A DNA stretch of 64,000 nucleotides from Candidatus Danuiimicrobium aquiferis (GCA_001804285.1 MHFR01000068.1:103230-167229); one strand, 5' to 3'; counted from the first letter of the stretch, positions 1,220 through 54,400 are shown. Notes: generated from the sequence alone by a model not told the origin. Numbers and translations are program-made.

Positions 1220-3223
1220 ATGTTTATTGAACGCCTATTGATCCATTTTGCATTATTCGAAATTTCCATTTTGATCTTGGTCCTCCCCATTTCTTATGGC
1301 TGGAATCATCTTTTCCGGCTTTCAATCACAAGCTTTATTTTAACTTTGCCGGCTTTTTTGTTGTGTCTCCGGATGGCTTTAAAGGGCAGGTTCCTTTGGT
1401 ATCGGTCTGCTTCAAATGTCTGGTTTACCTTACTTCTCATCGTTGGATTTTTTCAGCTGTCCGGGGCATTTATATTTCCTACGGGAACCAAGTGGTTTCC
1501 GGCATCCTTATATGCTGAAGCTACGGTTGTCGAAACGATAAAATGGTTTTCATTCGGCTCTTTGATTTTCCTTTTTTCAACGTGTTTGCGAGAACGAAAA
1601 GATATTCAGCAGCTTATTCGAGTTTTATATTTTTCAGCCTATGTGGTCGCTCTTATTTTTTTGCTGCAATTTATCGCAGGGAAGTCATTTGTTCGCGGAT
1701 GGGTCATCCAATATCCTTGGCTTTCGTTTTTTGGGATTCATTCCAACCGGAATTATTTAGCTGCTTATTTCGGAATGATGATTCCGATGGTTGTGTCGGG
1801 GTTGATTTATCGTATTCTTCGGCATGAGGATCGTTTGCACGCGGGGAGTTTGCATTATTTAGGCGATTCTAAATTGTTGTTTCAATTTTCGCTGCTGATT
1901 TTTCTCACGGCCTCATTTTTTCTGACGGGTTCCAGAACGTCAGTTTTCAGTTTTGTGATTATGGTTTTGTGTTTCGGGTTGCTGTCTGTTTTGAAAAAAC
2001 AAAAGAAAAAAAATATCGCCATTGTTTTGATGATTGGGGCAGTTTTGTGCTTTATTTTACTGTTGTGGCTCGGAAAGACTTTTTTGATTCAAAGTCATCG
2101 GATTTTAGGAGATCTCGATGCCTACCGACATTTGCATGGACGATTTCCGATATGGAATAATGCATTTCAATTGTTTAAAGTGTTTCCGGCATTTGGTGTG
2201 GGACTTGGTGTTTTTTCTTCAGCATTTTCCAACTTGCATATCATTCGATCCAATGTATTAACTCAGCATGTGTTAAACGATTACTTGGAAATTTTGACAG
2301 AAACAGGACTGATCGGTTTTTTGTGTATTGTATTTGGTTGTTTCTTTATGGTTGTGAAAGGGATTTTTGCTTTTCGGAAAACAGAAAGCCGGTTTAAAGG
2401 AATAATGGGAGCGGGTTGCTTGTTCAGCTTGATGATGTGTGCGATTCATGGCATGACCGTGTCGAATTTTTATGATTTAAATAATTCCTTTTTCATTTTA
2501 TTGATCTTATGCCTCTTTATGAATTTGCCCACGCTATCAAGACGTCCGATCAATGATGATTATGAAGTGGCGCAAAATAATGTACGGCATATCGATATTC
2601 CTTCCCGCGCGATGCGGGGAATCCTTTTAATTTTTCTTGTTGTAGGGTTTTGTTTTTTTTCTTACCAGGTTTTTAAGATTGGGGTGAGCGATTATTTTGT
2701 GAGCCGCGATACGATGGATGACTTAAAAAAAGCATCGCGAATTAATCATCATGATGCCGAAATTCCAGCGCGTATCGCAGAGAAATATTTTATCAAATCG
2801 AATTTGGCAGGGGGAATGCCCGAAGAAAAAAGCCGGAATTGTGCACTTGCGAGATCTTATTTCGAAGAAGCGCGAAAATTGAATCCGTATAATAGTCACT
2901 ATTGGTTCCGTGTTCTGGAAATGGATCGAGAGCTTGGACAGTTTGAAGTCGGCCTTATGGAGTTCGAAAAATATTTTCAACTGGTTCCGTTTGATGTGAA
3001 AGCGTATGTTGATTATGCAACAATGTGTTTTGCATATTCGTCAGGTTTGAATATTAAAGAGAATGAAAACGTTTATTTCGATAAAGGTCTCTGGGCTGTT
3101 CGCAAGGCTCTGAAGCTCGATGTGTCCCGCTCAATTTTATTTTTTAAAGATGTTTCGAATACATGGCCATCTGAGATTATGTCCCGAGTTCAGGAATTGA
3201 CACGGCTTAAAATTATGAGATAA
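1220..3223 (+). CDS. O-antigen ligase/polymerase (Wzy/WaaL-like) polytopic membrane protein with a C-terminal soluble TPR-like domain.
   Basis: The 667 aa ORF has about 12 hydrophobic helices in the first ~430 aa. The tail is hydrophilic with TPR-like helices (RSYFEEARKLNPYNSHYWFRVLE...). It sits in a glycan-biosynthesis locus. Confidence 0.65.
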   Translation: MFIERLLIHFALFEISILILVLPISYGWNHLFRLSITSFILTLPAFLLCLRMALKGRFLWYRSASNVWFTLLLIVGFFQLSGAFIFPTGTKWFPASLYAEATVVETIKWFSFGSLIFLFSTCLRERKDIQQLIRVLYFSAYVVALIFLLQFIAGKSFVRGWVIQYPWLSFFGIHSNRNYLAAYFGMMIPMVVSGLIYRILRHEDRLHAGSLHYLGDSKLLFQFSLLIFLTASFFLTGSRTSVFSFVIMVLCFGLLSVLKKQKKKNIAIVLMIGAVLCFILLLWLGKTFLIQSHRILGDLDAYRHLHGRFPIWNNAFQLFKVFPAFGVGLGVFSSAFSNLHIIRSNVLTQHVLNDYLEILTETGLIGFLCIVFGCFFMVVKGIFAFRKTESRFKGIMGAGCLFSLMMCAIHGMTVSNFYDLNNSFFILLILCLFMNLPTLSRRPINDDYEVAQNNVRHIDIPSRAMRGILLIFLVVGFCFFSYQVFKIGVSDYFVSRDTMDDLKKASRINHHDAEIPARIAEKYFIKSNLAGGMPEEKSRNCALARSYFEEARKLNPYNSHYWFRVLEMDRELGQFEVGLMEFEKYFQLVPFDVKAYVDYATMCFAYSSGLNIKENENVYFDKGLWAVRKALKLDVSRSILFFKDVSNTWPSEIMSRVQELTRLKIMR

Positions 3224-3254
3224 TAAGATCAAGAAATTTTGTTAATTTTGTAAG

Positions 3255-4199
3255 TTGTTGTCAATAAACAAGTTAAGATATTTCGCTCCTATAAAGTTAC
3301 CTCCAGAATTATATTTCCGGGGTTGTATGACTTCAAAATGTAAAGAAAAATTTATTACTAATCCACCGGATCTTCTTTCCGGTGTAAGATATATTGTTGC
3401 AGTCGCAAGCGGGAAGGGCGGCGTTGGTAAATCCACCGTAGCGTCAAATCTTGCGCTTGGCGTGTCGAAATTCGGCTCGAAAGTGGCGATTCTTGACTGT
3501 GATATTTATGGGCCTAGTATTCCCTTAATGTTTGGCTTATTGAATAGCTCGGTGAAAATGAATGCAGAACAAAAAATGTTTCCGCTGGAATCACACGGTG
3601 TTAAATTGATGTCACTGGGATTTGTTTCTAATGATCAGACCCCGATCATTTGGCGCGGGCCGATGGTTCACCAAATTCTTATTCAATTTCTATCGTCTAT
3701 TGTGTGGGGCGATTTGGATTATTTATTTTTGGATTTACCTCCCGGAACAGGCGATGCGCAATTGACGATTACGCAGTCAATCCGGTTGAGCGGGGCCGTT
3801 ATTGTAACAACGCCTCAAGAAGTGAGCCTGATTGATGCGCGGAAGGCTTTAAAAATGTTTCAGAAGGTGAATGTGCCGGTTTTGGGTTTGATTGAAAATA
3901 TGAGTTATTTTATTTGTCCAGATTGCGCAAAGACTTCTGAGATTTTCAAACGCGGCGGCGGCCGTCGAATTAGCGAAGAACTTCAAGTGCCTTTTCTCGG
4001 AGAAATTCCGATTGATTCTGAGGTTGTGAAATCGGGGGATGAGGGAACCCCGATAGTTGCCAAGCAACCCGATTCGGTGGTTTCGAAAAGATATTCAGAA
4101 ATTGGGATTGCGATCGGAATACAACTTAAAGTCATGGAGCGTAATCGTCATCGCGACAAGAATGATTTGGTCCAGATTGAAATGAAGAAAAATAAATAA
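3255..4199 (+). CDS. apbC: Mrp/ApbC/NBP35-family Fe-S cluster carrier ATPase. The likely true start is the ATG at 3327 (MTSKC...).
   Basis: It has a deviant Walker A (VAVASGKGGVGKST) and the CPDC metal-binding motif (ICPDCAKTSEIF). Confidence 0.88.
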   Translation: MLSINKLRYFAPIKLPPELYFRGCMTSKCKEKFITNPPDLLSGVRYIVAVASGKGGVGKSTVASNLALGVSKFGSKVAILDCDIYGPSIPLMFGLLNSSVKMNAEQKMFPLESHGVKLMSLGFVSNDQTPIIWRGPMVHQILIQFLSSIVWGDLDYLFLDLPPGTGDAQLTITQSIRLSGAVIVTTPQEVSLIDARKALKMFQKVNVPVLGLIENMSYFICPDCAKTSEIFKRGGGRRISEELQVPFLGEIPIDSEVVKSGDEGTPIVAKQPDSVVSKRYSEIGIAIGIQLKVMERNRHRDKNDLVQIEMKKNK

Positions 4200-4223
4200 A
4201 TCATATTTGACGAAGAGGGCACT

Positions 4224-4796
4224 ATGTCTGACGAAACGAATGAACTTAAAATAGAATCTTTAATCAAGGAAATGTTGGTTCAATTGGGAGAAAACCCGAA
4301 TCGTGAAGGATTGCTCAAAACGCCAAAGCGTGTTGCGGCCTCTTTCAAATATTTAACACGCGGGTATAGGCAAGATATTGATCAGGTGGTGAACGGCGCC
4401 ATTTTTCAGGAAAATTATGATGAAATGGTGCTCGTGAAAGAAATTGATCTTTTTAGTTTGTGTGAACATCATCTCCTTCCGTTTTATGGGAAAGTACATG
4501 TTGCGTATTTTCCGAATGGCAAAGTGATCGGACTGAGTAAAATCCCCCGGATTGTTGATGTTTTCGCCCAGAGGTTACAACTTCAAGAGCGGCTGACGAG
4601 TCAAATTGCAGACTGTCTGATGCATTATTTGAATCCCAAAGGGGTCGCAGTTGTGATTGAAGCTTACCATTTATGTATGGCCATGCGGGGGGTGGAGAAA
4701 AAGGATGCATTTTGTACGACGAGTGCCATGCTGGGTATGTTTCGCAAAGATCCGCGCTCGAGAGCGGAATTTTTGAATTTAATTGCGCGGAAATAA
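4224..4796 (+). CDS. folE: GTP cyclohydrolase I.
   Basis: It carries the FolE signatures [19 protein letters not shown] and [46 protein letters not shown]. Confidence 0.92.
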
Positions 4797-4815
4797 TTCT
4801 TAGGAAATCAACGGT

Positions 4816-5913
4816 TTATTGTTTTGTTTCTTCTTTTTTTAAATTTTCAATCTGTTTTTCAAGTTCTTCTACGCGTTTTTTGAGCTCCCTTACCGTTTGT
4901 GTTGTTTCTGCGATTCGGAGTTGTGCACCGACTTGTTTTCGCATTTCCTGATAAGGCCGGGCAGGTGTGCCGATCCATATTTGCTTGGGCGGGATTTTCT
5001 TTCCGGGCGGAACGCCGGATTCCGCTCCCAGCATGACTTGATCTCCGATTTCGACATGATCCGCTAAGCCGACACGGCCGCCCATGGTGACAAAATTTCC
5101 GACTTTCGAACTTCCTGCGATTCCGGTTTGAGCGGATAAACAACTGTGCTGACCGATCTCGACATTATGTGCGATTTGAACAAGGTTATCGATCTTTGTG
5201 CCCTTACCGATGATCGTTGAGCCGATCGTAGCGCGGTCGATTGTCACACAACCGCCGATTTCGACGTCGTCCTCAATAATTACATTACCTACTTGCGGAA
5301 CTTTTAAATGTTTTTGACCGTCAAAAACATAGCCAAACCCGTCTGTCCCAATCACTGTGCCCGCATGAATGGCAACGTTATGGCCAATCTTTGTGTTTGG
5401 ATATAGCACGACGCCGGGATGAATCACCGTATTTTTACCGATGGAAGTTCCTTCATCGATATACGAATGGGAGCGGATGACAGAATCCTCATCTATTGTC
5501 ACGTTTTCGCCGATATATGAAAATGGTTCAATCGTGACATTTTTACCGATTTTAGCGCTTTTAGCGATAAATGCTTGATTGGAAATGATTTTCGGAAATG
5601 TACGGGCTGGATTAAAAAGACCAAGCACAATAGCCCAAGCCACTTTTGGGTGAGGATGTTGGATAACAGGTTTTACGGTCGATTGAATTTCTGGAGGAAC
5701 AATTAAGGCCGCAAGACAGGTTTTCTCGATTTCAGATAGTTTTTTTGCATCCGTGATATAAGCAAGGCAACCTTCTTTAGGAGATTCAATGCTGGTGATG
5801 CCGATAATTTCGATATCACCATTACCGACAATGGTTCCTTTGATTAGGATAGCAATCTCATTTAATGTTTTTTCCATGAGGGACATTATAAAGGGCATGT
5901 TTCTTCTTGTCAA
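4816..5913 (-). CDS. lpxD: UDP-3-O-acylglucosamine N-acyltransferase.
   Basis: An N-terminal LpxD-type domain is followed by a long run of hexapeptide left-handed beta-helix repeats and a C-terminal coiled-coil tail. It is convergent with folE. Confidence 0.88.
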
Positions 5914-7411: not shown

Positions 7412-8329
7412 ATGAAATTTAGTATTATTATTCCAGTTTATAATGGGCTTGATTTTTTGAAAGATGCTATCGATAGCGTTATTGAGCAGACATTTTCTGA
7501 CTATGAAATCATTATCGTCGATGATTTTTCAGAACAGGATATTGAGGAGTTCCTCAAAAGCAACTACTCTGAATTCCTTGCGAAACAGGCAGTCCGATAT
7601 TTCAGGAATTCAAAAAGGATGGAGCGGTCTTTTAGTCGTAATTGCGGTGTCGAATATGCGCGGGGAGAAATTTTGGCATTTCTTGATCACGATGACTGTT
7701 TTAAGAAAAATCATTTATCGGAAGTTTACGAGGCCTTTTTAAAATACCCCGACATAGAACTAGTTTATTCTGTCCTTGAAGAATTGATTGATTATTCAAA
7801 TCGCGTTGTGTCTTTTAGCCCACACAAATTCAAAGATCAAGATCTAATTCAAGCAGCTTTGCAAGCTTCGTTTATTACATCGGGTATTTCTATCAAAAAA
7901 AAATCTTTCTTTCGAATCGGCCGGTTCGAAGAACGTTTAACTCAAAGAGAAGATTATGAGTTGCTGTGCCGCGGATTGATGGAGTGCGACTTAAGGGTTA
8001 TGTTGTTATGGGGGAATTCAATTCAAGTCAGGAGAGTCAAAAAGCCGGGGCGGTCATCAAGGAAATACATTCCAGACGATCCGTATCTGGAAAATACAAA
8101 GTTAGCAAAAAAAATCATCGGACAATATCAGTTTATGCATGATTGCCAGAAAGCAAGGCACTATCTTCCATATTTATATTATGAAGTAGCGAACGTTTCC
8201 ATTACCTATCACGATTTGAGCTATGCTTTTAGGGTGATATTGAAATTAATAATGATGAAACCTTTTGGCTTCGGTTATATTAAACTTGTCATGCGCTGGC
8301 TATATCATCGATTAGCGTTAGAAGCCTAA
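7412..8329 (+). CDS. Glycosyltransferase family 2.
   Basis: The N-terminal GT-A signature KFSIIIPVYNGLDFLKDAIDSVIEQTFSDYEIIIVDDFS and a DHDD motif are present. Confidence 0.8.
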   Translation: MKFSIIIPVYNGLDFLKDAIDSVIEQTFSDYEIIIVDDFSEQDIEEFLKSNYSEFLAKQAVRYFRNSKRMERSFSRNCGVEYARGEILAFLDHDDCFKKNHLSEVYEAFLKYPDIELVYSVLEELIDYSNRVVSFSPHKFKDQDLIQAALQASFITSGISIKKKSFFRIGRFEERLTQREDYELLCRGLMECDLRVMLLWGNSIQVRRVKKPGRSSRKYIPDDPYLENTKLAKKIIGQYQFMHDCQKARHYLPYLYYEVANVSITYHDLSYAFRVILKLIMMKPFGFGYIKLVMRWLYHRLALEA

Positions 8330-8345
8330 TTGCCGATAAATAGTA

Positions 8346-8497
8346 TTTGTTTAGCGCTTTGAAGTGATTATCTATAAAAGGTCGTCCGCTTTTTTGTCAT
8401 TCCCGCGAAAGCGGGAATCCAGCAACTATGGATGCCCGCTTAAAGCATGCGGGCATGACACGAACTGGCGTGTTCACCACTTCAAAACGCTAAATAG
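8346..8497. mobile_element. MITE-like element. Imperfect ~17-bp terminal inverted repeats (8350-8366 and 8478-8494) flank two internal hairpins.
   Basis: The terminal inverted repeats were read directly. The core contains the GTCATTCCCGC-GCGGGAATCC hairpin (8396-8420) and a second hairpin, ATGCCCGC/GCGGGCAT (8430-8459). The same core recurs at 37281 inside the giant ORF. Confidence 0.5.
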
Positions 8498-8543
8498 ACA
8501 CGATAAATAAGGATTGTGGGTTTAAATAAGGAAAGAAAGGAAA

Positions 8544-10364
8544 TTGATGAGAAGACAGTATTACAGGCTAAAGAGGTATCTCCAATTTTTAAATTCTTTA
8601 TCAGTGAAACCCGTTTATTTTTTGATTCCTGCCTTTTTTGCTTTATTGGCTTCATTGTTTGAAGGGATTAGTGTCGGATTGCTTGTCCCTTTGGCTCAGT
8701 CAATTATTAGCAGAGATTTTGAATCTATCCAAAATATCCCCGTATTTTCTAATTTAATTAAACTAATTCCTTTTATTTCATTAAAACAGTCGTATTTATT
8801 TTCGTTTTTGATCGGGGTTATTTTAATTGCGGCAATATTTAAAAACATTTTGCAATACGGTTCAGTTGTGTCTGGCGCCTTTGTCGTTCGACGTTTTGCG
8901 AACAATCTTAGGAAGCTCATTTTTGGCCGTTATTTGAGTTTTGGAAAATTATTTTTTGATCGAAATAACACCGGCCAACTTCATCATATCCTCATGGCGT
9001 TCACACAGGAGATTGCGGCAAACTTGTTGGAATTGGTCCATATGCTTAATTCTTTATTTATGATGGTTGTATATTTAGTGATTATGTTTTTAATTTCTTG
9101 GAAATTAAGCTTGATTACTATATTTTTGTTTCCTGTTTTGCACTTTAGTTTGGAGTGGATTATCAAAAAAGTAAATATTGCTTCAGAGGCATATGCGCAG
9201 TCTCAGAAAGCGCTTAGTGAGAAGATTTATAATGTCCTCTCGTGTATCCCTCTCGTTAAATCGTATGCCTGTGAGGCGGATGAGTCGAAACGCTTTGGAG
9301 AAATGAGCAATTCAGTGGAATGCTTGCAATTGAATATCGATCGAAAACATAAGCTTATTCAACCTTTGCAGGAAATTATCATGTTATTGGCTTTTATTTT
9401 ATTAATCATTGGAATGGCTTTTATGATGATGACGAGGGCGGAACATCGTTCGATCGGTAGTTTTTTAATTTTCTTTTATGTGATTCGCCGAGCATCTAAT
9501 TGTTTTGGTGTGGTTGAACGGATGCGTTCCTCTATGGCTGTCGTTCGCGGTGCGCTATCTTCAGTCGCTAAAATATTTGACGATAAAGATAAACATTTTA
9601 TTCCCAACGGGACGGTGATTTTCGATGGAATTAAAAAGAATATGATGATTGAAAATTTAAATTTTGCTTATGATGAGAAAATCCCTATTTTAAAAGGGAT
9701 GAATCTTACGATTGAAAGAGGGAAAATGGCGGCGATTGTCGGCCCAACAGGTGTCGGGAAAACGACACTTATTCATTTGATGATGCGTTTTTATGATAGC
9801 ATGCCCGGCGAGATTAAAATTGATGATATAGACATACGCGAGTTCGATCTAAAGTCCCTCAGAAATAAGATTGCAATCGTAAGCCAGGACGTGCATTTAT
9901 TTAATGATACCATCCGAGCAAATTTAATTTACGGATTGCCACGGGAGGTAGGTGAGGATGAACTGGTTGAAGTAGCCAAAAAAGCAAGGCTTTATGAATT
10001 TATTGAAAAATTGCCACTGCAATTCAATTCATTCGTGGGTGACCGCGGAGTCCGTCTGTCAGGGGGTGAGAAACAGCGGGTTTCCATAGCCCGAGCGCTT
10101 TTAAAACACGCTGATATTCTCATTCTTGATGAAGCGACAAGTGCGCTGGATACCGCTACTGAGAAATTGATCCAACGAGCGATCGAAGAGTTGATCTGCG
10201 ATAGAACCACCATTGTTATTGCACATCGGCTTTCAACGATTAAGAATGCGGACAAGATAGTTGTGATGGAAGGTGGTGCTGTAGCTGAAGAAGGAACTCT
10301 TGAGGAATTGCTTAAGCGGAAAGAGAAATTTTATCGTTATTGGGAAGAACAAAAGTTTTATTAA
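8544..10364 (+). CDS. Fused TMD-NBD ABC exporter (MsbA/PglK-like), a candidate lipid-linked glycan flippase.
   Basis: Six N-terminal TM helices are followed by Walker A (GPTGVGKTT), the ABC signature (LSGGEKQRVSIARAL) and Walker B (ILILDEATSALD). The gene is embedded among glycosyltransferases. Confidence 0.88.
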   Translation: MMRRQYYRLKRYLQFLNSLSVKPVYFLIPAFFALLASLFEGISVGLLVPLAQSIISRDFESIQNIPVFSNLIKLIPFISLKQSYLFSFLIGVILIAAIFKNILQYGSVVSGAFVVRRFANNLRKLIFGRYLSFGKLFFDRNNTGQLHHILMAFTQEIAANLLELVHMLNSLFMMVVYLVIMFLISWKLSLITIFLFPVLHFSLEWIIKKVNIASEAYAQSQKALSEKIYNVLSCIPLVKSYACEADESKRFGEMSNSVECLQLNIDRKHKLIQPLQEIIMLLAFILLIIGMAFMMMTRAEHRSIGSFLIFFYVIRRASNCFGVVERMRSSMAVVRGALSSVAKIFDDKDKHFIPNGTVIFDGIKKNMMIENLNFAYDEKIPILKGMNLTIERGKMAAIVGPTGVGKTTLIHLMMRFYDSMPGEIKIDDIDIREFDLKSLRNKIAIVSQDVHLFNDTIRANLIYGLPREVGEDELVEVAKKARLYEFIEKLPLQFNSFVGDRGVRLSGGEKQRVSIARALLKHADILILDEATSALDTATEKLIQRAIEELICDRTTIVIAHRLSTIKNADKIVVMEGGAVAEEGTLEELLKRKEKFYRYWEEQKFY

Positions 10365-27439: not shown

Positions 27440-27510
27440 AGTCTATCTTCAACGCAGTCAGCAGAATCGGTTCCGGTTCGCACAACGGGCGAATAGGTTT
27501 GTTAATAAAT

Positions 27511-27555
27511 CCCCTCACCCCGCCCTCTCCCTGAGGGAGAGGGCGGGGTGAGGGG
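27511..27555. terminator. Perfect 21-bp-stem, GC-rich palindrome after the asmA-like gene. No U-tract follows, so it may be a REP-like or factor-dependent terminator.
   Basis: The sequence reads cccctcaccccgccctctccc-tga-gggagagggcggggtgagggg. Confidence 0.55.
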
Positions 27556-27611
27556 TGATAGGCAACTTCAGGACGCTAAATAGATGCGATTGATATTAAA
27601 ATAGAAATTTT

Positions 27612-28502: not shown

Positions 28503-28707
28503 CCCGGATTTCCCGTCGATTCACAAAATCGTTGAGAAAGTCGGGTTAAATGAAATCGTTGTGTTAATATAAAATATTTCTTTCGGTATAATGATATTTC
28601 CATTTTCTTATCGTTTACTGTAAGATAAAGCATAGAATTGATCAAACTTAAATCAAGGGGACGATTGATCAAAAATCATCTCCATTTATAATGACAGGGA
28701 AATAAAC

Positions 28708-30723: not shown

Positions 30724-30832
30724 TGTCATTCCCGCAAGCCGTAGGCGGGAATCTCATGCCTTTGGATTCCCGACTACCCCGGAAAAGCTGGGGCCGGCCC
30801 TTTCTTTCCCAAGGGAAGCATTCGGGAATGAC
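30724..30832. repeat. Structured palindromic element of the GTCATTCCCGC family, in the orn-helicase intergenic region.
   Basis: It has a local hairpin (attcccgc-aagccgtag-gcgggaat). It also has a long-range inverted repeat (gtcattcccg at 30724, cgggaatgac at 30823). Confidence 0.5.
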
Positions 30833-30910
30833 AAGAAAACATTGAATTTGTTTCATATTCTTTGTCATTTGCGCTTTGATATTGGTCATTTGGAATAAAG
30901 CGAACGATCC

Positions 30911-36418: not shown

Positions 36419-39400
36419 ATGGCAGGTTCGACGAAACAGTTTATCTTAAGAATTATTGCGGGCGTTACATTATTGGCATTTTCAGTCAACCAAATTGGTT
36501 ATTCCAACCCAAGCCCGACTAATTTTTCAGCCCAACCGGTTACAGAGGTTCCGCTTCCGAATCCGGGATTCCAATTTTCGATTCCTCCAGAATTGGGGAC
36601 CGTTCAAAACCTGACATCCGGGTCGGGCGGCACGATCGTTCACATTCAAACCGCGCACGGAAATTACGAAGCCGAGAAACAAATTCAAGCGATTCTTCAG
36701 CATCTTCATGATCATTACGGATTTAATCTTTTACTTCTTGAAGGCGCCGGTGTCAAACTGAAACCGGAATTACTTCAATTTTTTCCTCAGAACAAAATCA
36801 AGACGTTTGAGCTTGCCGACAAGTTAACACACAAATCGCTCATGAAGGGTGCTGAACTATTTCTCATGCGGGCAAAGCGCGCGAAAGCATTCGGAATCGA
36901 AGACCTTAAAATATACCGGAGGAACCGGCGCGCCTTTTCGAGAGTCATGATGCGGAAAAAAGAAGCCGACGGGTTTTTGGAACAAATTGACCGGGGGATT
37001 AAACATTTTTCAGCTTTGTATTTGAATAAAGAACTGAGGACATTTTTAAATGAGTCGGAAGATTATGAAATGGGCAAGACGCCGCTTTTAGCATGGATCC
37101 GGTCGCTACAAAAAAATGCGGAGATTTTTTTAGATCTGGATTTATCCGATCCGAAAAATCAATTTCATTGGCCGATGACGCTTCGCCTGTTGAAATTGCA
37201 GGAGCTTGAGTCAAAGATTGATACGGAAAAGCTGGCGGAGGAGAAACGGAATTTTTTAAAGAAAATAAAACCTTTATTTGTGTCATTCCCGCAAAAGCGG
37301 GAATCCAGAATGATGGATCCCCACTTTCGTGGGGATGACAAGCAGTCTCGGATTGCATCGCCAATGTCCGGGACGACGGCTCGCAATGACGGCCGTCAGA
37401 ATAGGGGACAGGCAGTTCATCTGCCTGTCCCCTATTCTGGCCTGTACACCCAAATCGAATCCTTGCTCACGTCTCCCGCAAATATCCAGAATGAATTACC
37501 GGATCCCGAAACCGGACTTCTGTTCGAGAGGATGGCATCAAAACTTCCGAGGAATTTTAATTATCGCATGTACCCAAACCTGAATTATTTCATCGGCCGG
37601 TTAATTCTCCAAAGTGAAATTAAGGGGGAACTGTTACTTGCGGAAACCAATCATCTCGAAGAGTTGATTGTGAACCGCTTAGCGCAAAAAGAAGACGAAA
37701 AACAGCTTATGGAATTGCTCCGCGATTTTCATCTTTTAAAACGGTTATTCGCTTTAGCGCTTACGCCGGAAGATTACGAACAAATGACGAGCGATATCGT
37801 CCGTCATCCTGAGCCCCCAAAGGGCGAAGGATATGAGGAAAAGAGATTCTTCGCACTTCGCGCTCAAAATGACAGATTTCGTCCGAGAAACATGCTGCAA
37901 TCTTTTAACGCTTTAAACAAGGATAATCATGTTCAGAATTTACAAGTTGCTGGAATAAAAGATATCGATCTGCTCTATGAATCGGCTCTCGAATTTTATC
38001 GAATAGCGAAAAACCGTGATTGGGAAATGCTCGAAAATATTCAGAAGCGGATGAATCGGCTCGGTGAACGAAAAGCGATTGTCATTACTGGCGGTTTTCA
38101 TGCAACACCCTTCAAGAATTTCTTTTCTGAACACGGATATAGCTATGCGCAGGTTCGCCCCAAAATTTCCTCAACGGACGGATTCCAATCCTACATCGAC
38201 GCCATGCTTCAAAAATCCACGCTCGAGTCCCCGTATGTTTTCAGTATTCCGCCGGCAGAATGGATAAGGCACGGAATCAATCCAAGTTGGGTGAGACAAC
38301 AATTTTCTGCTGCGATGCGGGGGATGGCGGAGCGAAATCGGTCTGAAACGCGAAACAAAACAGGTTTACAAAAAGGGGACAGGCAATTGCTCAACAGGAG
38401 TCATATGCCTGTCCCCTTTTTGACTGACCAAAGCGCGCAAGAGTCCTCGATACGTTCCAAGGAGCATGTATCGAGGGCCGAAGCGCGCGGAAGAGAAGTC
38501 ACCAGTCGCCAGTCACTGGTCAATAGTGTTCCAGTGTCTAGTGATTTAGTATTTCAGGTAAGGGCTGAAGATTCCCGCCAGGGGCATGCGGGAATGACAG
38601 TAGAGCTCCATCGCAATGACGGTGCGTCAAGGGCCGAAGTCCGTCAGACGAAACAGGCGGAAATTGATACCCCGGCGTTTTATGCGGAATTGCCTAAAGC
38701 GCAATTAAGAAAAGTGGCATTTGCAATTCAGTTTTTGTTTGAAGATTCGTTTGCATGGCTTCCTCACGAAAAAACAGACATCAGCATCCCCAATATTGAG
38801 TCCGAACTGAAACGTTTACCGAATTACAAACTTAGGAACGAAGAAGAACTCGAGCGGATGCTTCCCAAACTGCGCCTCACAAACAGGGCAGCGCTTGTAC
38901 AATTTCTGGCGGTGTTAGTTGCATTGTTTGACAAAAAGGATGAAGAACGTGAGGCGGCGGAAAAGGCTGTGACGGAAACGGCTGAGGTGAAAAGCATAGA
39001 TGCTTCTACAGATGTTTCTCCTGAAGCGAAAAAATCGAAGTTATTCCATTTCGCTTTGCGTTTTATGGGGTTGGAAGAGCTTGTGCGATTTCGGACGATG
39101 AGGCGGACGAGCGGAGCGAGTAAGGAAGAGGAGAGGGCAGAAGATAAAAAAACGGATGCTTCGGTTGAAGCAGGTGAAGGAAAAGAACCGGATCAACCCG
39201 TTGACCGGCGGCCAACGAACGAAAAAGACGCTGCATTTTATACTCGAGATCTATATTTAACAGGCGGGCTGTCCCATCAAAACGCCTTGTCTAAAATTCT
39301 TGCATATCTTAAGGCCGGAATCGGTGATGTTGAAAGTGATTTGTTAAGGCAGCCGGTGTCGGATGTCCTTAAAACCTATGAGGATGATTTTCATCAGCGG

Positions 39401-42400: not shown

Positions 42401-45400
42401 ACCGCAGAAGATATGCAAGCCTTCGTCCATTTCTTTTTCGAACGATTTTATCGATTTCAGAAGTATAAGGGTATGGAAAATATTGTTGATCCGGAAAACG
42501 GCATCCTGCTGGTCAAGACTATAGACGAGTTGAAATTGCATAAACAGGATATTTTGACAGCGATACAAAATAAGAATCGCGCAGTATATGGCAATATGCT
42601 TTTTTGGGAAGGACTATTCCGAACATTTGCTGTAAACGGTCCTGGTTTTTATGATGCGTTTACACCTGACGAATGGAAAACCGTTCTCAATCATGTTTTT
42701 GATGTGTTGGAGGGGAAAGTGCATTATCGGCATTTTCGCCAGCGTTATTTTGAAGAGAGGAAAGCACTCAATGTTATTGATTATTTTCTGTGGGGTAATT
42801 TATCGAGCTTGCACCGATTGCATCTTTATTTTGAGGGTGTTGGGACGGTGAAAGGCGATTTTCAGAAAGTATCCATTCTCTATCTAATGATGGCTGATAG
42901 TCCGTGGGGGTATGTTTTCCCAAGTGCGGATCATTTTACCGTATTAGATCCCGATCGTTCGGGTCTATATCTATCATTTTTTGAAGATCCGTCGATTGCG
43001 GTGGGGATTCCGGAAAATCCTTGGGCAAAATCCAATTCTAAGGGGGGGCTTCCTACTGCAAAAGCACCGCGTGTTGCCGTAAACGTTTCACCGGAAATTC
43101 GGAGTTTAATGGTTGAAACGATTGAGCGCCTTGTCAAAACAAAAACAGGGGATCAAGATGTTCAGTCTTTTATTTATTCCAGAAACCTTTGGTTTAATGG
43201 ACACAATACTGCCGATTTTTTGAAATCAGATCTGTTAAAGCAGGCTGCTCCGGTGAGGCCGAAACCGCTCAGCACAAAACCTTACACAACAACCAAGCCG
43301 GCAGAACGATCCGGAAACGTTCAGAGCCAGGGGCGGGCTGAAGTGCGCAATGTCACGCCAAAAACGGGGACAGGTTCTGTATCAGTGAAACCAGAACCTG
43401 TCCCCGTTCTGGCGAGGGCTGAAACTCGCGACGAAGCGTTGGGAGGGCGAGTGAGCGTGAAGGAAGAAGATGTCTTTAAAGGATCGAAACTTCTTAAATG
43501 GCTTGGTGCCGCGTTTTGGGGGTTGGGTTGTGCGGCGTTTCTTTATGGCGCATACGGCGTTATTTCGCTTTCGGATCTTTTTGTTTCCTACTTGCCGGTG
43601 CTTCTTGAGGGCTGGCTTATTATTGGAACTGCCGTGCTTGTCAGCCATTACAAAAATCAGTTGCAATATTGGACGCGGCTTTCATTGATGACCGGTGCAA
43701 CCGTGTCCGTTTTCTTGCTCTTTCACAAACTCGCCGCTTACTACTGGCCGGTGTTTGGTTTGAATCCCGACATAAAGCTGTCAACAAGCATGATCGTCCG
43801 CTTGCCATCTATCTTTTGCGGAGTTTTTATCAACGAGTTGATTCGGGTAAAAAGATTTTTTAATTTCGAATTCAAATTAGGCTGGGAAGAAGCGAAGCCC
43901 CATTTTATCAAGGCATTTAAATGGGCGATTTCTTACGGAGCGATTACGGGATATTATTTTTATGTTGTTTTGTACGGCTTTATCGGACCGTATATTCCAC
44001 AGGCGAATTATTTTCCGATGATGACACCTGATATGGGGACGGCGATGATGAAAATGTTTTTTGACCTCGCGGTGACGACGCCCCTTGTCAATATTTGGAC
44101 CGTAAGTGCGGTTAGTGTGGCCTTCGGAGAAGAGGTGGATGTTGCCCAAAATTGGAGAAACCAGCTGGAGGGTTTTCTGTTATTTTATCCTTTAACATCT
44201 CTTTATTGGATGGTCGCGCTTTCTATATCATGGTTTCTCTTCCCGGATGGCCTGGATGGTTTTCAGGCCTCTCATGCGCTTTTTTCCACTCTTTGGCAGA
44301 TAGCATTGCCGGTATTTATTGTTAAGTTTTATATCGGAAACGGAAAACGCGGCAAGTTGACCGGTCAAAAGCCTGCTCCGGTTCCTCATCTCATATGGGA
44401 AAACCAATCGGTTTCCGCAATATCCCGCAGAGTGGACGTGCGTCCCAAGAACGCAAACACAGGAATTACGGTAAACCGCAGCCATCTTCGTGCTTTGGCA
44501 ATCAATATGGTATTTGCCGGAGGAGCTGTGGCGGATAAAGCGGCTCAATGGGCGCTGAGTAAAACATTGCCTGTAGCGGCGAAATTGCTTTGGCCCGGAA
44601 AACCGCGGCGATCAAAGACGTCAGACCGTTCCGAAGTTCGCAACAATGAAAATAATGCCAAAACGATTGTTGATCGAGGCGAACAAGAGTCCTCGATACG
44701 TAGAGGGCTTGTATCGAGGGCCGAAGCGCGGCAGGAGGAATATGAAGTCGCGAGTCAACCGGCGGCTCCACATATCAGGAATTTGAAGCAAGTAGTCACT
44801 GATGTTCAAACAGCGGTTTCCGAACTCAATATTCGCGGCCTGGAGGTTTTTGTTTTCGGTTCGCGGGCAAATGGGAAACCAAGGGATGGTAGCGACTTGG
44901 ATTTGATCGTTTTAGTTTCCGAGACCATGGATCAGGCTGCTGCCATGGCGATTATTTGGCAAAATGATGAAATTGAAAAACGACTTTCAGAAAAGCTTAA
45001 AACAAAAAGAGATTACCGTGTGCAATTTCACGATATTAATCCGGCAACCCGGCGGCACTATTTTTATTTGTGGAAGACTCGACAGTTTTTTAAAAAAAAT
45101 ACCTATCTTTGGTTTGTTCAGGCAAATTCAATTCAAGGGTTTGAATTGCATGCAGATGGAGTTGTTCCGGTGGATCTTGATCGACTGGAAAGTTTAACGC
45201 CGCTGCCGATCAATCTTGCGAACGATATAGCAGGCTTATCTCCTGAACAATCTCGGAGTGAAACGCGGCAAATGGGATTCGCAGAAGAGGACGAGGAAGA
45301 CTCTGACGATGACTTCATGCTCGATGGTGAAGACCTGGATATAATGCCTGGCGAATTTTCAGTGAAGCCCCAACCGCCTTCCGGGGCTGCCAATCAATTG

Positions 45401-48400
45401 AGTGGCGGCAAAGAAGAAAAAAATAAGGGAAAAAGATTTCCAGCGGCGCGTCCTGATGATTATCCCTCTCCGGTTCGATCCATCATTTCCAGTGGACTTA
45501 AAATTGACGAGGACACCTCGCTTCCTTCTGCCCGACGGTCCGAAGTTCGCCTCAAAAAAGATAGTACAGAAGCGATGCTTCATCAAGGCGCACGAGTGTC
45601 CTCGATACATCCCAAGGGGCCTGTATCGAGATCCGAAGCGCGCAACATTTTACAAAAAGGGGACAGGCATATGACTCCTATTGAACAATTGCCTGTCCCC
45701 TTTTTGACTGACCAAAGCGAACGAGAGTCCTCGCAGTTGCGGCGAGGGCCAAAGGATGCCGCTGCGAGGGCCGAAGTTCGGTCGGATTTCAACAACGCGA
45801 CAGATGAACAAATCATGACTGCGCTAAAACAAATCGGGTTATCCGAGCGGCAAACCCGGAACCTTTCCACTTATCTTTCGAAAATCAAACGCGTTTTGGC
45901 ATCGGGCCGGCGGTTTCGATCGCATGAAGAACTCCGCGTATTCATGGCGGGTGTTTTGGGGGTGCCTGAATTGGCGGCGAAATTCGCAGATCATTTCTTT
46001 GAAAAGTCTGCTTCTCAGCCTGCGGCAAAGCCCAACAAAGCTCCTTCAAAATCATTTCAATTTAATAGAACAGTTGAACAGGTGATCGGCAAGATGCCTT
46101 TTAGCGTGAATGTTTTGTCAGGTCCGAACAGGAAAAAACTTTATGACGGAAAATACGTTCCCAATGTTGTTCAGGTTGCCAGCCTTGGCGTGAGAGAAAG
46201 AATAGCAGCAAGGCACATCGTCTATTCTAAATTTCTTGATGTGTTGGAAGAGTATACACACCTGACAGAAGCAGAATTGCTTCATATGGGTTTTGTCTAC
46301 AGGCAGGGACCTTCATCTTTATATCTTTCAGAAGTGGTTCGTCCTATTCTCCAATCAACCGGAGCAAGTCATGAAGCGCAATCGGCTTTGGCTCCGGCTA
46401 TTCTGGAAATTGCCAAAAGCATGCGCGAAGCCAAAGCGCTCAGCGGGGATGAAGTGCTTAAAGCCATTTTTTCTAATTTGGGTGGGATCGATGGACAATT
46501 CAGCCAGCTCATCGCCTATTTGAACCACATTCAATTTAACAAAGGGAAAAATCCGCGGCTGAAAGTGCCGGATGAGAAAGTACAAGAAATAAAATCCATT
46601 GGTGAAGTGGAAGAGATAACGATTTGGTTTGTTAAAGCCGGGTTCCTTACGAGTGTCGCAATGGCAGAAGTTAAATTCAAAAGTAGTACAAATCGAGCGC
46701 CCATTCGTTTTGCGATTAATGTCGCTAACGATAGAACGATTTCCGCGGAGAAAGTGAGGAATGCATATCGTCATATGCGAGCTGATTATGATTTAGATTC
46801 CCGGTTTGTTGCTGAACCGATTGGGTTGGGAACCGAGATTGCGCCGGTGATCATCAGTGAGTGGGTCGAACAGAGTGACGAACTTCATTTGTATGCGGAT
46901 ACCGGATTTCAGCAATTCCAGGTTTGGAGCGGCCAAAATATGCACAACAACCAAAAAGTTTCGCTTCAGGACTCCCGGAAAATTTGGCGACAAATTATTC
47001 AGATACAAACGATGTATTCCGGGGTGAGGCCTGACGGTGCCGGGATGTCACGGCCATGGATCAATCGCGGGGATTTTGTGCTGACGCGTGATTCGCAAGG
47101 GGAACCGCGTGTTGTATTAATTTGGGATGACAGAAGTAATCTTGTTACGGGACAGAAGATTCCGTGGGACGCTATTGATAGCGTTGTCAACAGTTTGATT
47201 TGGGGGGAAGTTGACCCGGACAGCGGAAAATATATTTGGGCAGATGATCCGGAATTAGCGATTCGAGCGATTGAAGACGGGTATTTAGAGCATAGGCAAG
47301 ATAAGATGGAGGCGAAAGCTGAACTGATCGAAATTCTTAAGATGGTCTATAGAAATAGACTTCCTGAAATTATTAGGCAGCCTTCTGTCATTTCGGCGGG
47401 TTTTGATGATTTTGATCCTGCTGAACTGGATCATTTTATTTCTGTCGCTAAGCATGCACACAAAGTGCTGGGCGAATTTTTGCAGCAACGTTCTGAAGTT
47501 CGGGAAGAATCTTTTGCGGTTGACGGTGAAAAAGACCTCACCATTGAAGAAATCGATGCGCAAATGAAGACGGACGGCTTTCCGGAAATGGAATGGTTAT
47601 GGAAGACATTCAAAGGGATGAAAATATGGAAGGGCGTAAAACTCCGGCGTATCAACTTAGCCGATATTGATCCCGGAAAAATTCAAGAGATGCGCACCAG
47701 GCATATGGGCGGTTTATTGGCGCGTCCTTTGGTCATGGCTTTGATGTCGGTTTCCATTATGTGTATTGCACTGTCCGTTTTTATGCTTTCCGTTTCTGCT
47801 CTGCAAGATGTCATGCTTTCGCTGCAGGGCTATCCTGTGGGTGATTGGCATAGTTTCTGGAAGAATAATGTCGAACCGATTTTTCGGATGTTTCGCAATC
47901 CGCTGATATGGATGGCGCTTTTATTTTCAACGCCGGTGGTTTTTTTGCCGGCAACGGCAATCAAGCGGGCGTTTCTGCTGTCCTGGAAGAAAATTTCCGC
48001 ATTGGACCTTGCGTTTATGTTAAGCAAACGGAATTACCGGGAATGGTTCGAGCAGACGCCGGGGGCGCAACAAACGGTCGCCAAACTTCGCGGCATGGGA
48101 ATCAATGAAAACTTTGATAATCCTGATTATGCTCGCCGCTATCGCGCCACGACCAAAGGTGTTGTGGAAGTGCCGATTCCTGCTGTCCCCAACGTTCATG
48201 CCGTTCTGAAGGAGGTACTCGGGGAAGTGCGTGATGGAAAATACGAGCGGGGCAACTACACGACCAGTCTAAAACACGGAAGGAAATCCGTGACGGCTTT
48301 TGTCGCGCAGAATAAAAGGGAGGTTGAGCTCAGCAAGCCGCCGAGGCCCAGGTATGCGTGGCCTATCCCTACGTTCATCGGCTTGCTCATGGGTTTTTAT

Positions 48401-51400: not shown

Positions 51401-54400
51401 TCTGAAGCGCGGCAGGACCATGTTGCAGATGAAATAAGGGCTGAGTTCCAAACTATCGTAGCTGTCGCGAAAGGGAAACCGAAAAGAATCAAAGGATTGA
51501 GTTCTATTGTTGATTTTGAAAGCGGACGGCTCAGGGCCAATTTCCCGAGGCCAATCGGTGATACCGTTGGAAAGACGAAAACGATCGGCCCCGTCAAAAA
51601 CCTTGCTGATTTGGAACTTGAAATTTTCAACCTTGCGACCGGCGAATTCCGGATGGATTTCTATTATAAGAAAACCGGTGAGAAGAAATTTGAGAAGGAT
51701 CCTTTGAGGATGTATTGGGTTCCTGAAAAGAAAGCGTTTCTTGTTGAGCGTGAATATCAGCTGGAAAGAGTCAACGCGGCTTTCCGCCGGCTGCGCGAAA
51801 CGAAACAAAAGGGTACTGAAGAAATCAGAGAAACAATAGGTGACATTAGCGCGTTTATGAATTTACAGGTTGGTGGCACTCCGGAAGCATTTCAGACGCC
51901 GGATGGCGAGTCCGTGGAAAAACCATTTTTTACCGGTGCGGGTGTCGATCTCGACAGGATGTCGCTTGTGATTGTCAAGGAATCGCAGGACCGCTATCGG
52001 TTGGAATTTGGTTATGTGTATACGGTTGAGGATGAAGAAAGCCATGAAAAAATAAAAAAAGAGGGTATTGCGGTTGTCTTATGGGAACGAAACAAGAAAG
52101 CAGATGATTATAAAGGCTACATCCGCCGAAAAGATAAACAAATTGAAGAACTTCGGAATGCGTTCAAAGAATTATTAAATCCCGCATTGCCGGTTGGTTC
52201 TGCCCGCGATATAGAGGATGTGCGGGAGCTTTTTCACTTGCCGACGGGCCTCATGCAGATCGCTTTCCCGACACCCGACGGAGGAAATATTGGTGGCGGA
52301 AAATCTGAAGAGGAAGGCAGGAGAGGCATCGGGGCGTCTGCGGACCTGGAATTTATTTCGGCGCGTGTTGTTAAAACGGCCGATGAACAGCTGCGGGTTG
52401 ATTTTTATTATAAGACTCGGAAAGACAAAATTATCCGCGAGGAACCGGCAAGCATTGCTTGGGACGGACTCAGTTACATATTCCCATCGGATGACATGGG
52501 GTTGACGGACAAGGAATTTCGCATGCGTGTTCTCAAAGGGCGTATTCTCGAAGAACTTTTATATCGATTTTTTGCGAAAAAGCAGAGCGACACAATGTCA
52601 TCCTCCGGCTTGACCGGAGGATCCATGGATTCCCGCTTGCGCGGGAATGACAGAGGATCGCGGATAGAATTCGAAAGAGAGTTTCTTGTAGATGAGTTTA
52701 CGAAAGAGTACCGTTACCCGACTTTTTTTGTGGAAGGTGAGTTTGTCGGCGCCTGCAAATGGGGTCGCAGCGCACATAGCATTGTTGAGACGGTCCTGAA
52801 ATTATCCCGGCTCCAGAAGTTGAGCGGGCGCACGGAGCCCATTCGGTTGATTGTGTTTGATGCCGCGAAAGTGGACGAAGCCATGGAGGCGCTCAGAGCT
52901 ACGCAAATCAACGGAATTCCGTACGAAATTATTCCTGCCAGTGAGTTGCTGAAACGGACCGGCCCGCCGAATGGCGATGCTGTTTCGATGCTCGAGACAT
53001 TAAAGGATGTCCGTCAGAAAGAGCTTGCAGGCGATGAAACAGGTCTTGAGAAAATGTATGCGTCGTTACGTGAAGAAAGTGGTGCTCCGGTCCGCCGTTA
53101 CAAAAAAGGGCTTCAACTTCAGCATGAGGCCGACTGGCAAAGTCATTTGATCAATCATTATATCGAGGAAGGGCCGGAGAAAATTCTTTCTGTGCTTGAT
53201 TCCATTCAAGAACATCAGTCCCCATACTGGGAATGGGCCTACCATTTGCGCTTAATTGCGTTTCTTTCTTATTTGTATCAAAAAGTTGAAGACGGCCGCG
53301 TGAGAAAGCGGATTCTGGAAATTTATCCTGATATTGAAAAAGATCCCGGCGCATGGCAGAAGATCGTTCAATATTACAAACTGCGGGAATATGGCCCCGA
53401 CGCCGAGGCGCGGATTCATGCGCTTATTCGGACGCAAGAACTCGATGAGAGTGAAGACATAGAAGAGGCTGAAGAAGTTCCGGCGCCCGCGGCCGAAAGA
53501 AAATCGCGGATGACTCATGCGGCTGCGTTTGATTTTGGAAGGTTTGAAGTGACCGTTGATCGAACGATCAGCCGGCAGATGAAGCGGCACCACATCACTG
53601 ATTTAGATAAGGCCGTTCCGGCGGTCGATATGGCAGTCACGCCGGATGTCAAGGCTGCCACACTTTTGGAGACCATTGCCGAATTCCGGAAGTTATTTGC
53701 AAGAGTGACCGACCCTTACGACCCCTTCCAGCGGATGAGCCTCTTTTTGTCGCAAAAGAAGGAAGACCTCAAAGATATTCCGGCGGCCGAGAGGCATGCT
53801 TTGTTACGGCAAGTTGTGCAGGCGTTTGTCATGTATTTTATCGATGTGAAGCGGTTTAATGACAGCCGGTATAAATTTTTTACGGGATATAAAGGCGGTT
53901 TGGGGAATGTCGGATTCGGGGACTTCTTACGGTCTCTTGATGCCACCGGCAATCTTATTTTGGTCGAAGATGATTTTGGGCCCGGCGTGAGCGGCTCTCG
54001 TTTGTTAAACGAATTCGAAACCTTTGCCAAAACGCTTGGTATCCCAGTCCCTCGTCTAAGTTTCGATCCGCATGCAGCTGCAGCTTCGGGAAATGTTCCG
54101 ATTCCGGCAGCTGTTTTCTTTGCTGATGAAATTATCCGGAGAGCCGATCGCGGCAAACTTGTAAGAACACCGGAGGATCGAAGGGTGATCCTCGATTTTA
54201 TCGGGGCGATTAAAAGCGATCAACAGCGAGTGGTTAAACTTGCGGCGGCGGCAAAAGGCGGAGTCAATACGAATCAAGTCGGTTTTAATGAAGCGGTGGT
54301 CAAAGATCTCCACGATCAAGTAAAACGGACAGGACCTCAAAGTTTTCCCGAGAAGTTGGAAGAGAGAATCGTAAAGTTTGCTCAAGGGATTATTCAAATA

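Follow-up and report, generated by a model that had tools for sequence, protein, structure and literature searches.

Among the closest described relatives of the hairpin repeat reported here are the CGTC-1 REPs, which carry the tag CGTC (TGTC in many repeats), occur mostly as dimers and have intragenic copies in several species (PMC3733652). The counterparts of this family are dRS3 in Neisseria and RPE-6 in Rickettsia, the latter being equated with CGTC REPs by Di Nocera et al. along with RPE-4 (PMC3733652). A nuclease that acts on such hairpins has also been described: SsnA, a GIY-YIG protein of 94 aa, binds the hairpin and cuts beside it in single-stranded DNA only, and not in RNA. Hairpin cleavage has been demonstrated for the Neisseria and Wolbachia Ssn enzymes, and the ssn gene is typically flanked by the motif (PMC11893778). 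Among insertion sequences (ISs), ISDge4, an IS66-family member of the ISBst12 group, has one ORF of 449 aa, the ends GTGACTACTCAGCA / GTAACTGCTCAGCA and an 8-bp direct repeat (PMC12898284).

Here, we analysed a 64-kb stretch of DNA (the window) and characterized a short repeat-bounded element in it. It is very probably a MITE of an Omnitrophota bacterium that has IS66-type arms and carries an NTS/SRM hairpin dimer as a passenger.

Borders, copies and target sites of the element

The element separates two plus-strand genes, for a GT2 glycosyltransferase (7412-8329) and an ABC exporter (8547-10364), in agreement with the placement given by the first-pass annotation of this DNA. That annotation had put the borders at 8346-8497, with 17-bp arms. 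Both arms (TTTAGCGCTTTGAAGTG at 8350-8366 and CACTTCAAAACGCTAAA at 8478-8494) were found, and the repeat reaches further outward: an alignment of 19 copies of 154-160 bp from different loci shifted the borders by about 3 bases on each side and gave an element of 159 bp instead (Table 1). The terminal inverted repeats are 24 nt long with 20 of 24 positions complementary, the longest inverted-repeat alignment at the ends covers 27 nt (81%), and the arm consensus after alignment is GT(A/G)T(C/T)T(A/G)TTTAGCG(C/T)TTTGAAGTG ... (C/T)AC. Target-site duplications, which had been proposed as a check, are present as a perfect 8-bp direct repeat, GATAAATA, directly abutting both arms on the outside. Only 5 nt separate the GT2 stop from this duplication, and 37 nt lie between the right copy of the duplication and the ABC-exporter start. 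ORFs overlapping the element have only 48-57 aa, and a Pfam search of eight flanking ORFs revealed no transposase in the window; the element is therefore non-autonomous, as had been supposed.

Table 1. Positions of the element, its parts and related repeats in the window
Feature	Position	Strand	Basis
Left target-site duplication GATAAATA	8335..8342	.	direct reading; identical 8-mer at 8502-8509
Whole MITE	8343..8501	+	alignment of copies at different loci
Left terminal inverted repeat GTATTTGTTTAGCGCTTTGAAGTG	8343..8366	+	resembles ends of IS66-family ISs L189, L209, L211
Hairpin unit 1, TGTC-ATTCCCGC-GAAA-GCGGGAAT-CCAG	8395..8422	+	fits SRM motif; one mismatch to NTS consensus
Hairpin unit 2, inverted, 9-nt loop, TGTCATGCCCGC-ATGCTTTAA-GCGGGCATCCAT	8428..8460	-	fits SRM motif; stem covaries
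Right terminal inverted repeat, reverse complement GTGTCTATTTAGCGTTTTGAAGTG	8478..8501	-	pairing with left arm, copy alignment
Right target-site duplication GATAAATA	8502..8509	.	direct reading
Truncated sibling MITE, 114-bp type; cargo palindrome 27511-27555; right arm 27564-27587 intact, left arm lost	27494..27587	+	aligns to L149, L139, L154
Bare intergenic dimer, long variant, 39-nt two-hairpin module in unit 2 loop	30724..30833	+	looser pattern; module as in 197-198-bp MITEs
Bare dimer, no arms or duplication, in frame in giant ORF, read SFPQKRESRMMDPHFRGDD	37281..37340	+	motif recurrence, translation
Single SRM-type hairpin inside giant ORF	38567..38599	-	looser pattern; SRM motif
Bare dimer, opposite orientation, in frame in giant ORF, read MSSSGLTGGSMDSRLRGND	52596..52652	-	motif recurrence, SRM fit, translation

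Within the window, arms were found at this locus only, plus one degenerate arm (27564-27587, four mismatches), and a similarity of 31 nt (81%) connects 8479-8509 with 27565-27595. The right-end motif ACGCTAAATAGA, previously noticed at 27573, is indeed there; it is shared because 27494-27587 is a truncated sibling of the MITE, and it forms part of the sibling's right arm.

Metagenome contigs were scanned with the arm pattern ACTTCARRRCGCTAAAYARA, which covers all three arms in the window, and at least 79 stretches were retrieved. None of the fetched loci overlaps the window, whose own sites lie outside the scan results. Pairing of the arms (motif GTRTYTRTTTAGCGYTTTGAAGTG, at most four mismatches) yielded at least 40 elements. 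The first-pass annotation had let its reading stand or fall with further copies having the same termini, and at least 37 of these metagenomic elements are distinct by their flanks, with different sites and mostly similar interiors. One copy (L159, 2028-2186) is 100% identical to that of the window and sits at another site, with the duplication AGAATGAA; four more (L143, L158, L192 and L156) are 97-99% identical, again at other sites and with different duplications, and the remaining subfamilies show 82-92% identity to the window copy. The 8-bp duplication is perfect in 21 of the 37 distinct copies and has one mismatch in another 6; the perfect ones all differ from each other, and the duplicated target sites are 72% A+T. 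Several copies are present on contigs attributed to the same MAG (the Ga0155201 contigs, by shared organism name). In viral contigs scanned with the arm motif, only two single arms were found, and the one compared (L202) duplicates a metagenome locus (L160).

Empty sites, a further check suggested at first pass, could be found for one kind only. The MITE copy at 7719-7872 of locus L148 interrupts another repeat, which is intact at 1009-1082 of the window and in about 10 loci: CATCGATT is present on both sides of the insert and only once in the intact repeat copies, which makes these a paralogous empty site. On the other hand, no orthologous empty site for the window copy was found among the six contigs carrying the GT2 gene, all of which hold the MITE or break in it. 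The interrupted repeat belongs to a family, CTAACCCGnCTTTCTCATCGATTTTGTGAATCGACGAGAAAGnCGCTTTGGGCGCAATCAGTTGCGnCCAAAG, that we observed at 1009-1082 and 28509-28551 (reverse) of the window and in about 10 related loci. Arms of L148 lying 3.9 kb apart were also considered as the ends of one large element; this candidate was rejected, as they belong to two separate MITEs.

The same arms at 37 or more sites, the 8-bp duplications and the paralogous empty site all bear out the MITE interpretation, and together they imply that the element transposes with a staggered cut of 8 bp.

Over 14,617 nt the window has the same sequence as GCA_001804245.1, whose proteins are named Omnitrophica bacterium RIFCSPLOWO2_12_FULL_44_17, and over 14.4-18.3 kb it is identical to the contigs with an identical GT2 protein, which come from that NCBI assembly and from the Rifle-aquifer metagenome. 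Three of the six GT2-bearing contigs (L004, L005 and L006, from independent assemblies) end 107-153 nt past the GT2 stop, inside the MITE, as would be expected at a multi-copy repeat. Two 198-bp copies (L130, 680-877 and L200, 995-1192) have the same left flank and different right flanks, and one of them lacks a duplication, pointing to recombination between copies or to chimerism of the assembly.

IS66-family insertion sequences as candidate source of the arms

When arm pairs at wide spacing were searched for, an IS of 1738 bp was identified (L189, 1694-3431) that has the duplication GGAAGTAA on both sides and ends with GTATCTGTTTAGCC... and, as reverse complement, GTAATTATTTAGCCGTTTGAAGTT. 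Its single ORF of 457 aa matches DDE_Tnp_IS66 (PF03050, E = 1.2e-45) plus the IS66 zinc finger, and it shares a 30.6-kb contig with two MITE copies (loci L168 and L189). Two additional ISs were identified: one of 1907 bp from the same field site (L209/L210, 1-1907), which starts with GTATCTATTTAGCGTATTGAA and matches some MITE arms at 20 of 21 positions, and one of 1436 bp (L211, 1-1436) with the ends GTAACTGTTTAGCC. All three are full-length, single-ORF members of the IS66 family with 8-bp duplications.

The best IS ends are only 75-95% identical to the MITE arms, so the actual mobiliser may be another member of the family. Homologues of the L189 transposase are numerous (1412 matches) and mostly located on short unbinned contigs of 1.4-2 kb; the MAG of the window was absent from the 120 of these 1412 matches that were listed, and no transposase cluster with several copies emerged when the proteins of the MITE loci were clustered. 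Many of the contigs with such homologues begin and stop exactly at the ends of the IS. Given the presence of IS66 ISs with related ends in the same aquifer and the 8-bp duplications, the MITE is best read as the non-autonomous partner of single-ORF IS66-family elements, and which of them moves it we can only infer. To judge from their ends and 8-bp duplications, the single-ORF ISs of this aquifer are the likely source of the transposase. An IS66-family (ISBst12-group) DDE transposase would move the MITE in trans, its staggered 8-bp cut generating the duplicated GATAAATA.

The arms might instead be something other than transposon ends. According to Di Nocera et al., the CGTC-1 dimers of Halothiobacillus neapolitanus all lie inside a palindrome of 41 bp (PMC3733652), and the arms described here always enclose some palindromic module. 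The outer inverted repeat might thus be a palindromic target into which REP dimers insert, as those authors proposed for H. neapolitanus. However, such a target is at odds with the perfect 8-bp repeats that directly flank the arms of 21 of 37 copies, with the joint copying of arms and cargo to new sites at 97-100% identity, with the interrupted repeat of L148, which marks the insertion of a whole unit, and with the existence of ISs that have related ends and encode an IS66 transposase. Moreover, no arm pair without cargo was seen among the MITE copies found. Such an origin of the arms is extremely unlikely in our view, and we hereafter treat them as the ends of an IS66-type MITE.

The hairpin dimer inside and outside the element

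The two hairpins that had been claimed for the core between the arms can both be read directly. The core (8395-8460) is an inverted hairpin dimer closed by TGTC/GACA, with the layout TGTC-ATTCCCGC-GAAA-GCGGGAAT-CCA...TGG-ATGCCCGC-TTAAAGCAT-GCGGGCAT-GACA, in which hairpin 1 (ATTCCCGC-GAAA-GCGGGAAT) occupies 8399-8418 and hairpin 2 (ATGCCCGC-N9-GCGGGCAT) 8432-8456; the tags point outward and the CCA tails inward. Unit 1 possesses all features of CGTC-1 REPs (TGTC tag, 8-bp stem starting with AT, 4-nt loop and CCA tail) and is one base off the NTS consensus CGTCATTCCCGCGMAVGCGGGAATCYRG (consensus from PMC11893778). Unit 2 keeps the CGTC-1 tag, stem and tail, and its loop has 9 nt. The published SRM search motif, HGTCWYN(0-2)YYVSBRHN(0-5)WNVSBRGN(0-2)RNCYNB (PMC11893778), has 6 matches in the window versus 0.14 expected, and both units of the core fit it. 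In plasmid and mislabelled chromosome records, matches to the MITE were confined to the part of hairpin 1; they were found in Azospirillum, N. gonorrhoeae, Sphingopyxis (inside ileS), Sphingomonas and Photobacterium. By its sequence features, the core is a member of the CGTC-1 REP / dRS3 / NTS / Ssn-related-motif class, distinct from the MITE shell. A string shared with 30871, GCGCTTTGA, was rejected as being within chance.

The predicted fold of the MITE region is very stable (RNA, -66.5 kcal/mol and z = -7.7; DNA, z = -5.7, both relative to shuffles). Considering also that the element stands between two co-oriented genes and that REPs have been reported to affect mRNA stability (PMC3733652), it could be argued that it is primarily a structured regulatory RNA or a terminator for a GT2-ABC exporter operon, repetition being secondary. 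However, the window has no Rfam match at gathering thresholds, and a promoter and terminator scan of 8200-8650 predicted nothing within the MITE; copies are found in both orientations, within ORFs and beside unrelated genes, and it is single-stranded DNA rather than RNA on which SsnA works (PMC11893778). A primary role as RNA is thus very unlikely, and a mobile element with a hairpin passenger is retained as the better explanation.

Ssn-like ORFs, all single-domain GIY-YIG proteins of 92-96 aa, were detected in the loci retrieved by the scans for dimers and for MITEs. P0003, a paralogue of one of them, is encoded by a gene for 94 aa (3001-3285) on contig MHFP01000064.1 of GCA_001804245.1 (L204, 166-5189), between mutS and mutL, and is surrounded by SRMs at 2964-2991 (+) and 3286-3313 (-): TGTCATTCCCGCGAAAGCGGGAATCCAT, identical to unit 1 of the MITE, is 9 nt ahead of its start, and an inverted SRM follows right after its stop. 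A further SRM was observed within the mutS ORF (L204, 691-718). P0003 is a paralogue, 82% identical, of P0001, the protein of L142/L199 named from RIFCSPLOWO2_12_FULL_44_17; the PF01541 domain was confirmed by hmmscan for P0001 and taken from a precomputed assignment for P0003. P0001 is 60.5% identical to the product of a single N. gonorrhoeae locus, 117 nt from the best NTS match there, and in Omnitrophota nzgw330 an ssn-like gene is flanked by four SRMs. By analogy with the characterized enzymes, we infer that a local Ssn would cut the core hairpins. The MITE carries, as a passenger repeat, two inverted Ssn-related units that would then serve as sites for small GIY-YIG Ssn nucleases on single-stranded DNA.

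The inverted pair of REP-like hairpins also matches the architecture of REPINs (PMC3116915, PMC3337134) and might have been spread as a REP doublet by RAYT, an IS200/IS605-like tyrosine transposase. Yet the tag is TGTC/CGTC instead of GTAG, Di Nocera et al. could identify no transposase dedicated to CGTC REPs (PMC3733652), and the hairpin-flanked gene, here as well as in Omnitrophota nzgw330, encodes a GIY-YIG nuclease and not RAYT. No recurrent protein family was found beside the 122 dimer copies analysed below, where the search brought up housekeeping families only and no transposase; three Ssn-like genes were picked up there by a regular expression. We therefore give the REPIN origin hardly any credence and assign the dimer to the SRM class as above.

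The same arms frame different cargoes, which fall into size classes of 114, 159, about 197 and about 292 bp. In the 114-bp copies, the cargo is the palindrome CCCCTCACCC...GGGGTGAGGGG. Copies of 186-293 bp contain extra small hairpin modules, either in the loop of unit 2 (L130, L146, L201, L193 and L162), in the loop of unit 1 (L187, 13056-13295; L139, 5796-6075; L141, 9647-9939) or in the spacer (L155 and L167). This nesting exactly in hairpin loops or in the spacer hints at an insertion process that targets hairpins. The 39-nt module in the unit 2 loop of the 197-198-bp MITE copies is also found in the bare dimer at 30724-30833.

The recurrence of the core at 37281-37340, pointed out in the first-pass annotation, is there and in frame within a giant ORF of >9197 aa that extends from 36410 past the window's end at 64000. 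Two further matches to the 26-nt motif of hairpin 1 were found, one at 37283-37308 and a reversed one at 52625-52650 (chance expectation 0.00). Looser patterns add two more window copies (Table 1), and neither these nor the reversed copy had been noticed at first pass. Each of the dimers at 37281 and 52596 has three of six frames open, and the giant gene uses an open one. In distant homologues of the N-terminus of the giant protein (23-29% identity), the stretch corresponding to the first dimer is missing, and one of them bears its own hairpin insertion elsewhere, SPRKRGSSWIPAFAGMT. As these copies have neither arms nor duplication and the homologues are devoid of the stretch, they are in-frame insertions of the bare repeat, not MITE copies. 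Thus, the link that had been drawn between intergenic and intragenic repeats holds for the common hairpin cargo, but the intragenic copies, without arms or duplications, belong to another and much more widely distributed class of repeat than the MITE.

The giant ORF also contains in-frame clusters of different hairpin modules, at 37281-37440, 38369-38650, 44627-44736, 45536-45790, 51277-51420 and 61105-61220; one module, CAAAAAGGGGACAGGCA...TGCCTGTCCCCTTTTTG, is present in both orientations. A second CGTC-tagged hairpin type, CGTCATTGCGAGC...GCTCGCAATGAC, was observed as MITE cargo in L138 (4826-4960) and at 37360-37385 (reverse), beside the giant-gene dimer. Palindromes or hairpins are not mentioned in the preprint on Omnitrophota giant genes, and in the literature searched, whose coverage was incomplete, neither this MITE nor palindromic insertions into such genes were found to be described.

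A scan of one genome per species with the full dimer pattern identified at least 116 stretches in more than 15 phyla, including Patescibacteria, Omnitrophota, Planctomycetota, Chloroflexota, Nitrospirota, Nitrospinota, Thermodesulfobacteriota and Verrucomicrobiota, as well as in Gammaproteobacteria (including Coxiellaceae), Rickettsiales and others. Their flanks are unrelated to each other, and MITE arms are present on none of the cross-phylum dimer stretches listed (at least 116). Unit 2 pairs in 105 of 122 copies, compared with 23.5 expected when the 3' halves are dealt at random, and does so with 36 different stems; it is therefore the pairing that is conserved, not the sequence. In the flank logo of bare dimers, only a weak T-rich/A-rich bias is visible, and there is no sign of a duplication. 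Approximately one-eighth of the dimer copies are within a long ORF, examples in other Omnitrophota being ORFs of 1610 aa and at least 2666 aa. One dimer (L122, 4105-4172) lies within a class-I tRNA-synthetase-like ORF (1483-4921) and, in an unrelated phylum, the Sphingopyxis indica unit in ileS, a class-I synthetase gene as well; tRNA-synthetase cases are listed by Di Nocera et al. too (PMC3733652).

Bare dimers would have spread by a second route that leaves no duplication, into intergenic DNA and, where the frame stays open, into coding DNA. It is conceivable, though we consider it unlikely, that SRM units and the other two-hairpin modules spread via Ssn-dependent targeting of single-stranded DNA hairpins, with SRM-ssn-SRM as an autonomous GIY-YIG mobile element and the bare dimers as its non-autonomous derivatives. 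The footprints of such spread would be the modules nested in loops and the duplication-free insertions in the giant gene and mutS. If this were true, the IS66-type MITE would be a second vehicle that carries Ssn target sites round the genome.

Comparison with known systems

Both layers, the MITE shell and the hairpin cargo, belong to known kinds of mobile DNA. What is new is this MITE family, its swappable palindromic cargo and the pairing of Ssn with SRMs in Omnitrophota. A DDE-transposon shell is here physically combined with the putative recognition sites of a site-specific single-stranded DNA nuclease. Sites of this kind modulate transforming-DNA uptake in Neisseria, and their multiplication by a MITE may change the places at which a genome is cut or recombined. 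That the 28-nt hairpin dimer is found in the candidate phyla radiation (Patescibacteria) and in many further phyla points to horizontal spread on a very broad scale or to strong constraint. On the practical side, these repeats fragment metagenome assemblies, produce the spurious peptides SFPRKRES, LDSRLRGND and WIPAFAGMT and lengthen giant Omnitrophota proteins by unselected stretches, and they should be masked before annotation or modelling.

With regard to the shell, the MITE arms and the single-ORF IS66 ISs have terminal inverted repeats starting with GT(A/G).CT..T.AGC, and the element shares with ISDge4 and the ISBst12 group the 8-bp duplication and ends starting with GTA/GTG...AGC. Similar to other IS-derived MITEs, it is short, lacks a transposase ORF, is present in many copies and co-occurs with full-length ISs. 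However, its interior is not the deletion remnant of an IS but swappable palindromic cargo.

With regard to the cargo, the dimer resembles CGTC-1 REPs, NTS and SRMs in the TGTC tag, the 8-bp stem starting with AT, the GNRA-like 4-nt loop, the CCA tail, the inverted dimers and the intragenic copies, and the likeness to the SRM/Ssn system extends to the ssn homologue of GCA_001804245.1 with the motif on either side. It differs from them in that one dimer is placed inside a transposon with terminal inverted repeats, that the loop of unit 2 has 9 nt and its stem varies, and that the host belongs to Omnitrophota. The dimer was also found in Patescibacteria, Planctomycetota, Chloroflexota and Nitrospirota, whereas previous studies emphasise Proteobacteria/Pseudomonadati (PMC3733652, PMC11893778). 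Rickettsia palindromic elements, to which the repeat is likened by description, are likewise palindromic repeats inserted in frame and translated in protein genes; here the host is different, and the insertions are clustered with further hairpin modules in one giant gene. REPIN/RAYT systems are comparable in their inverted REP doublets, non-autonomy and many copies, but their tag superfamily is GTAG and not CGTC, and the associated gene here encodes a GIY-YIG nuclease rather than a tyrosine transposase. Finally, Neisseria NIMEs and enterobacterial BIMEs are also mosaics of short modules that include dRS3/REP hairpins, whereas the mosaic described here is assembled between transposon arms with duplications, or in frame inside a gene.
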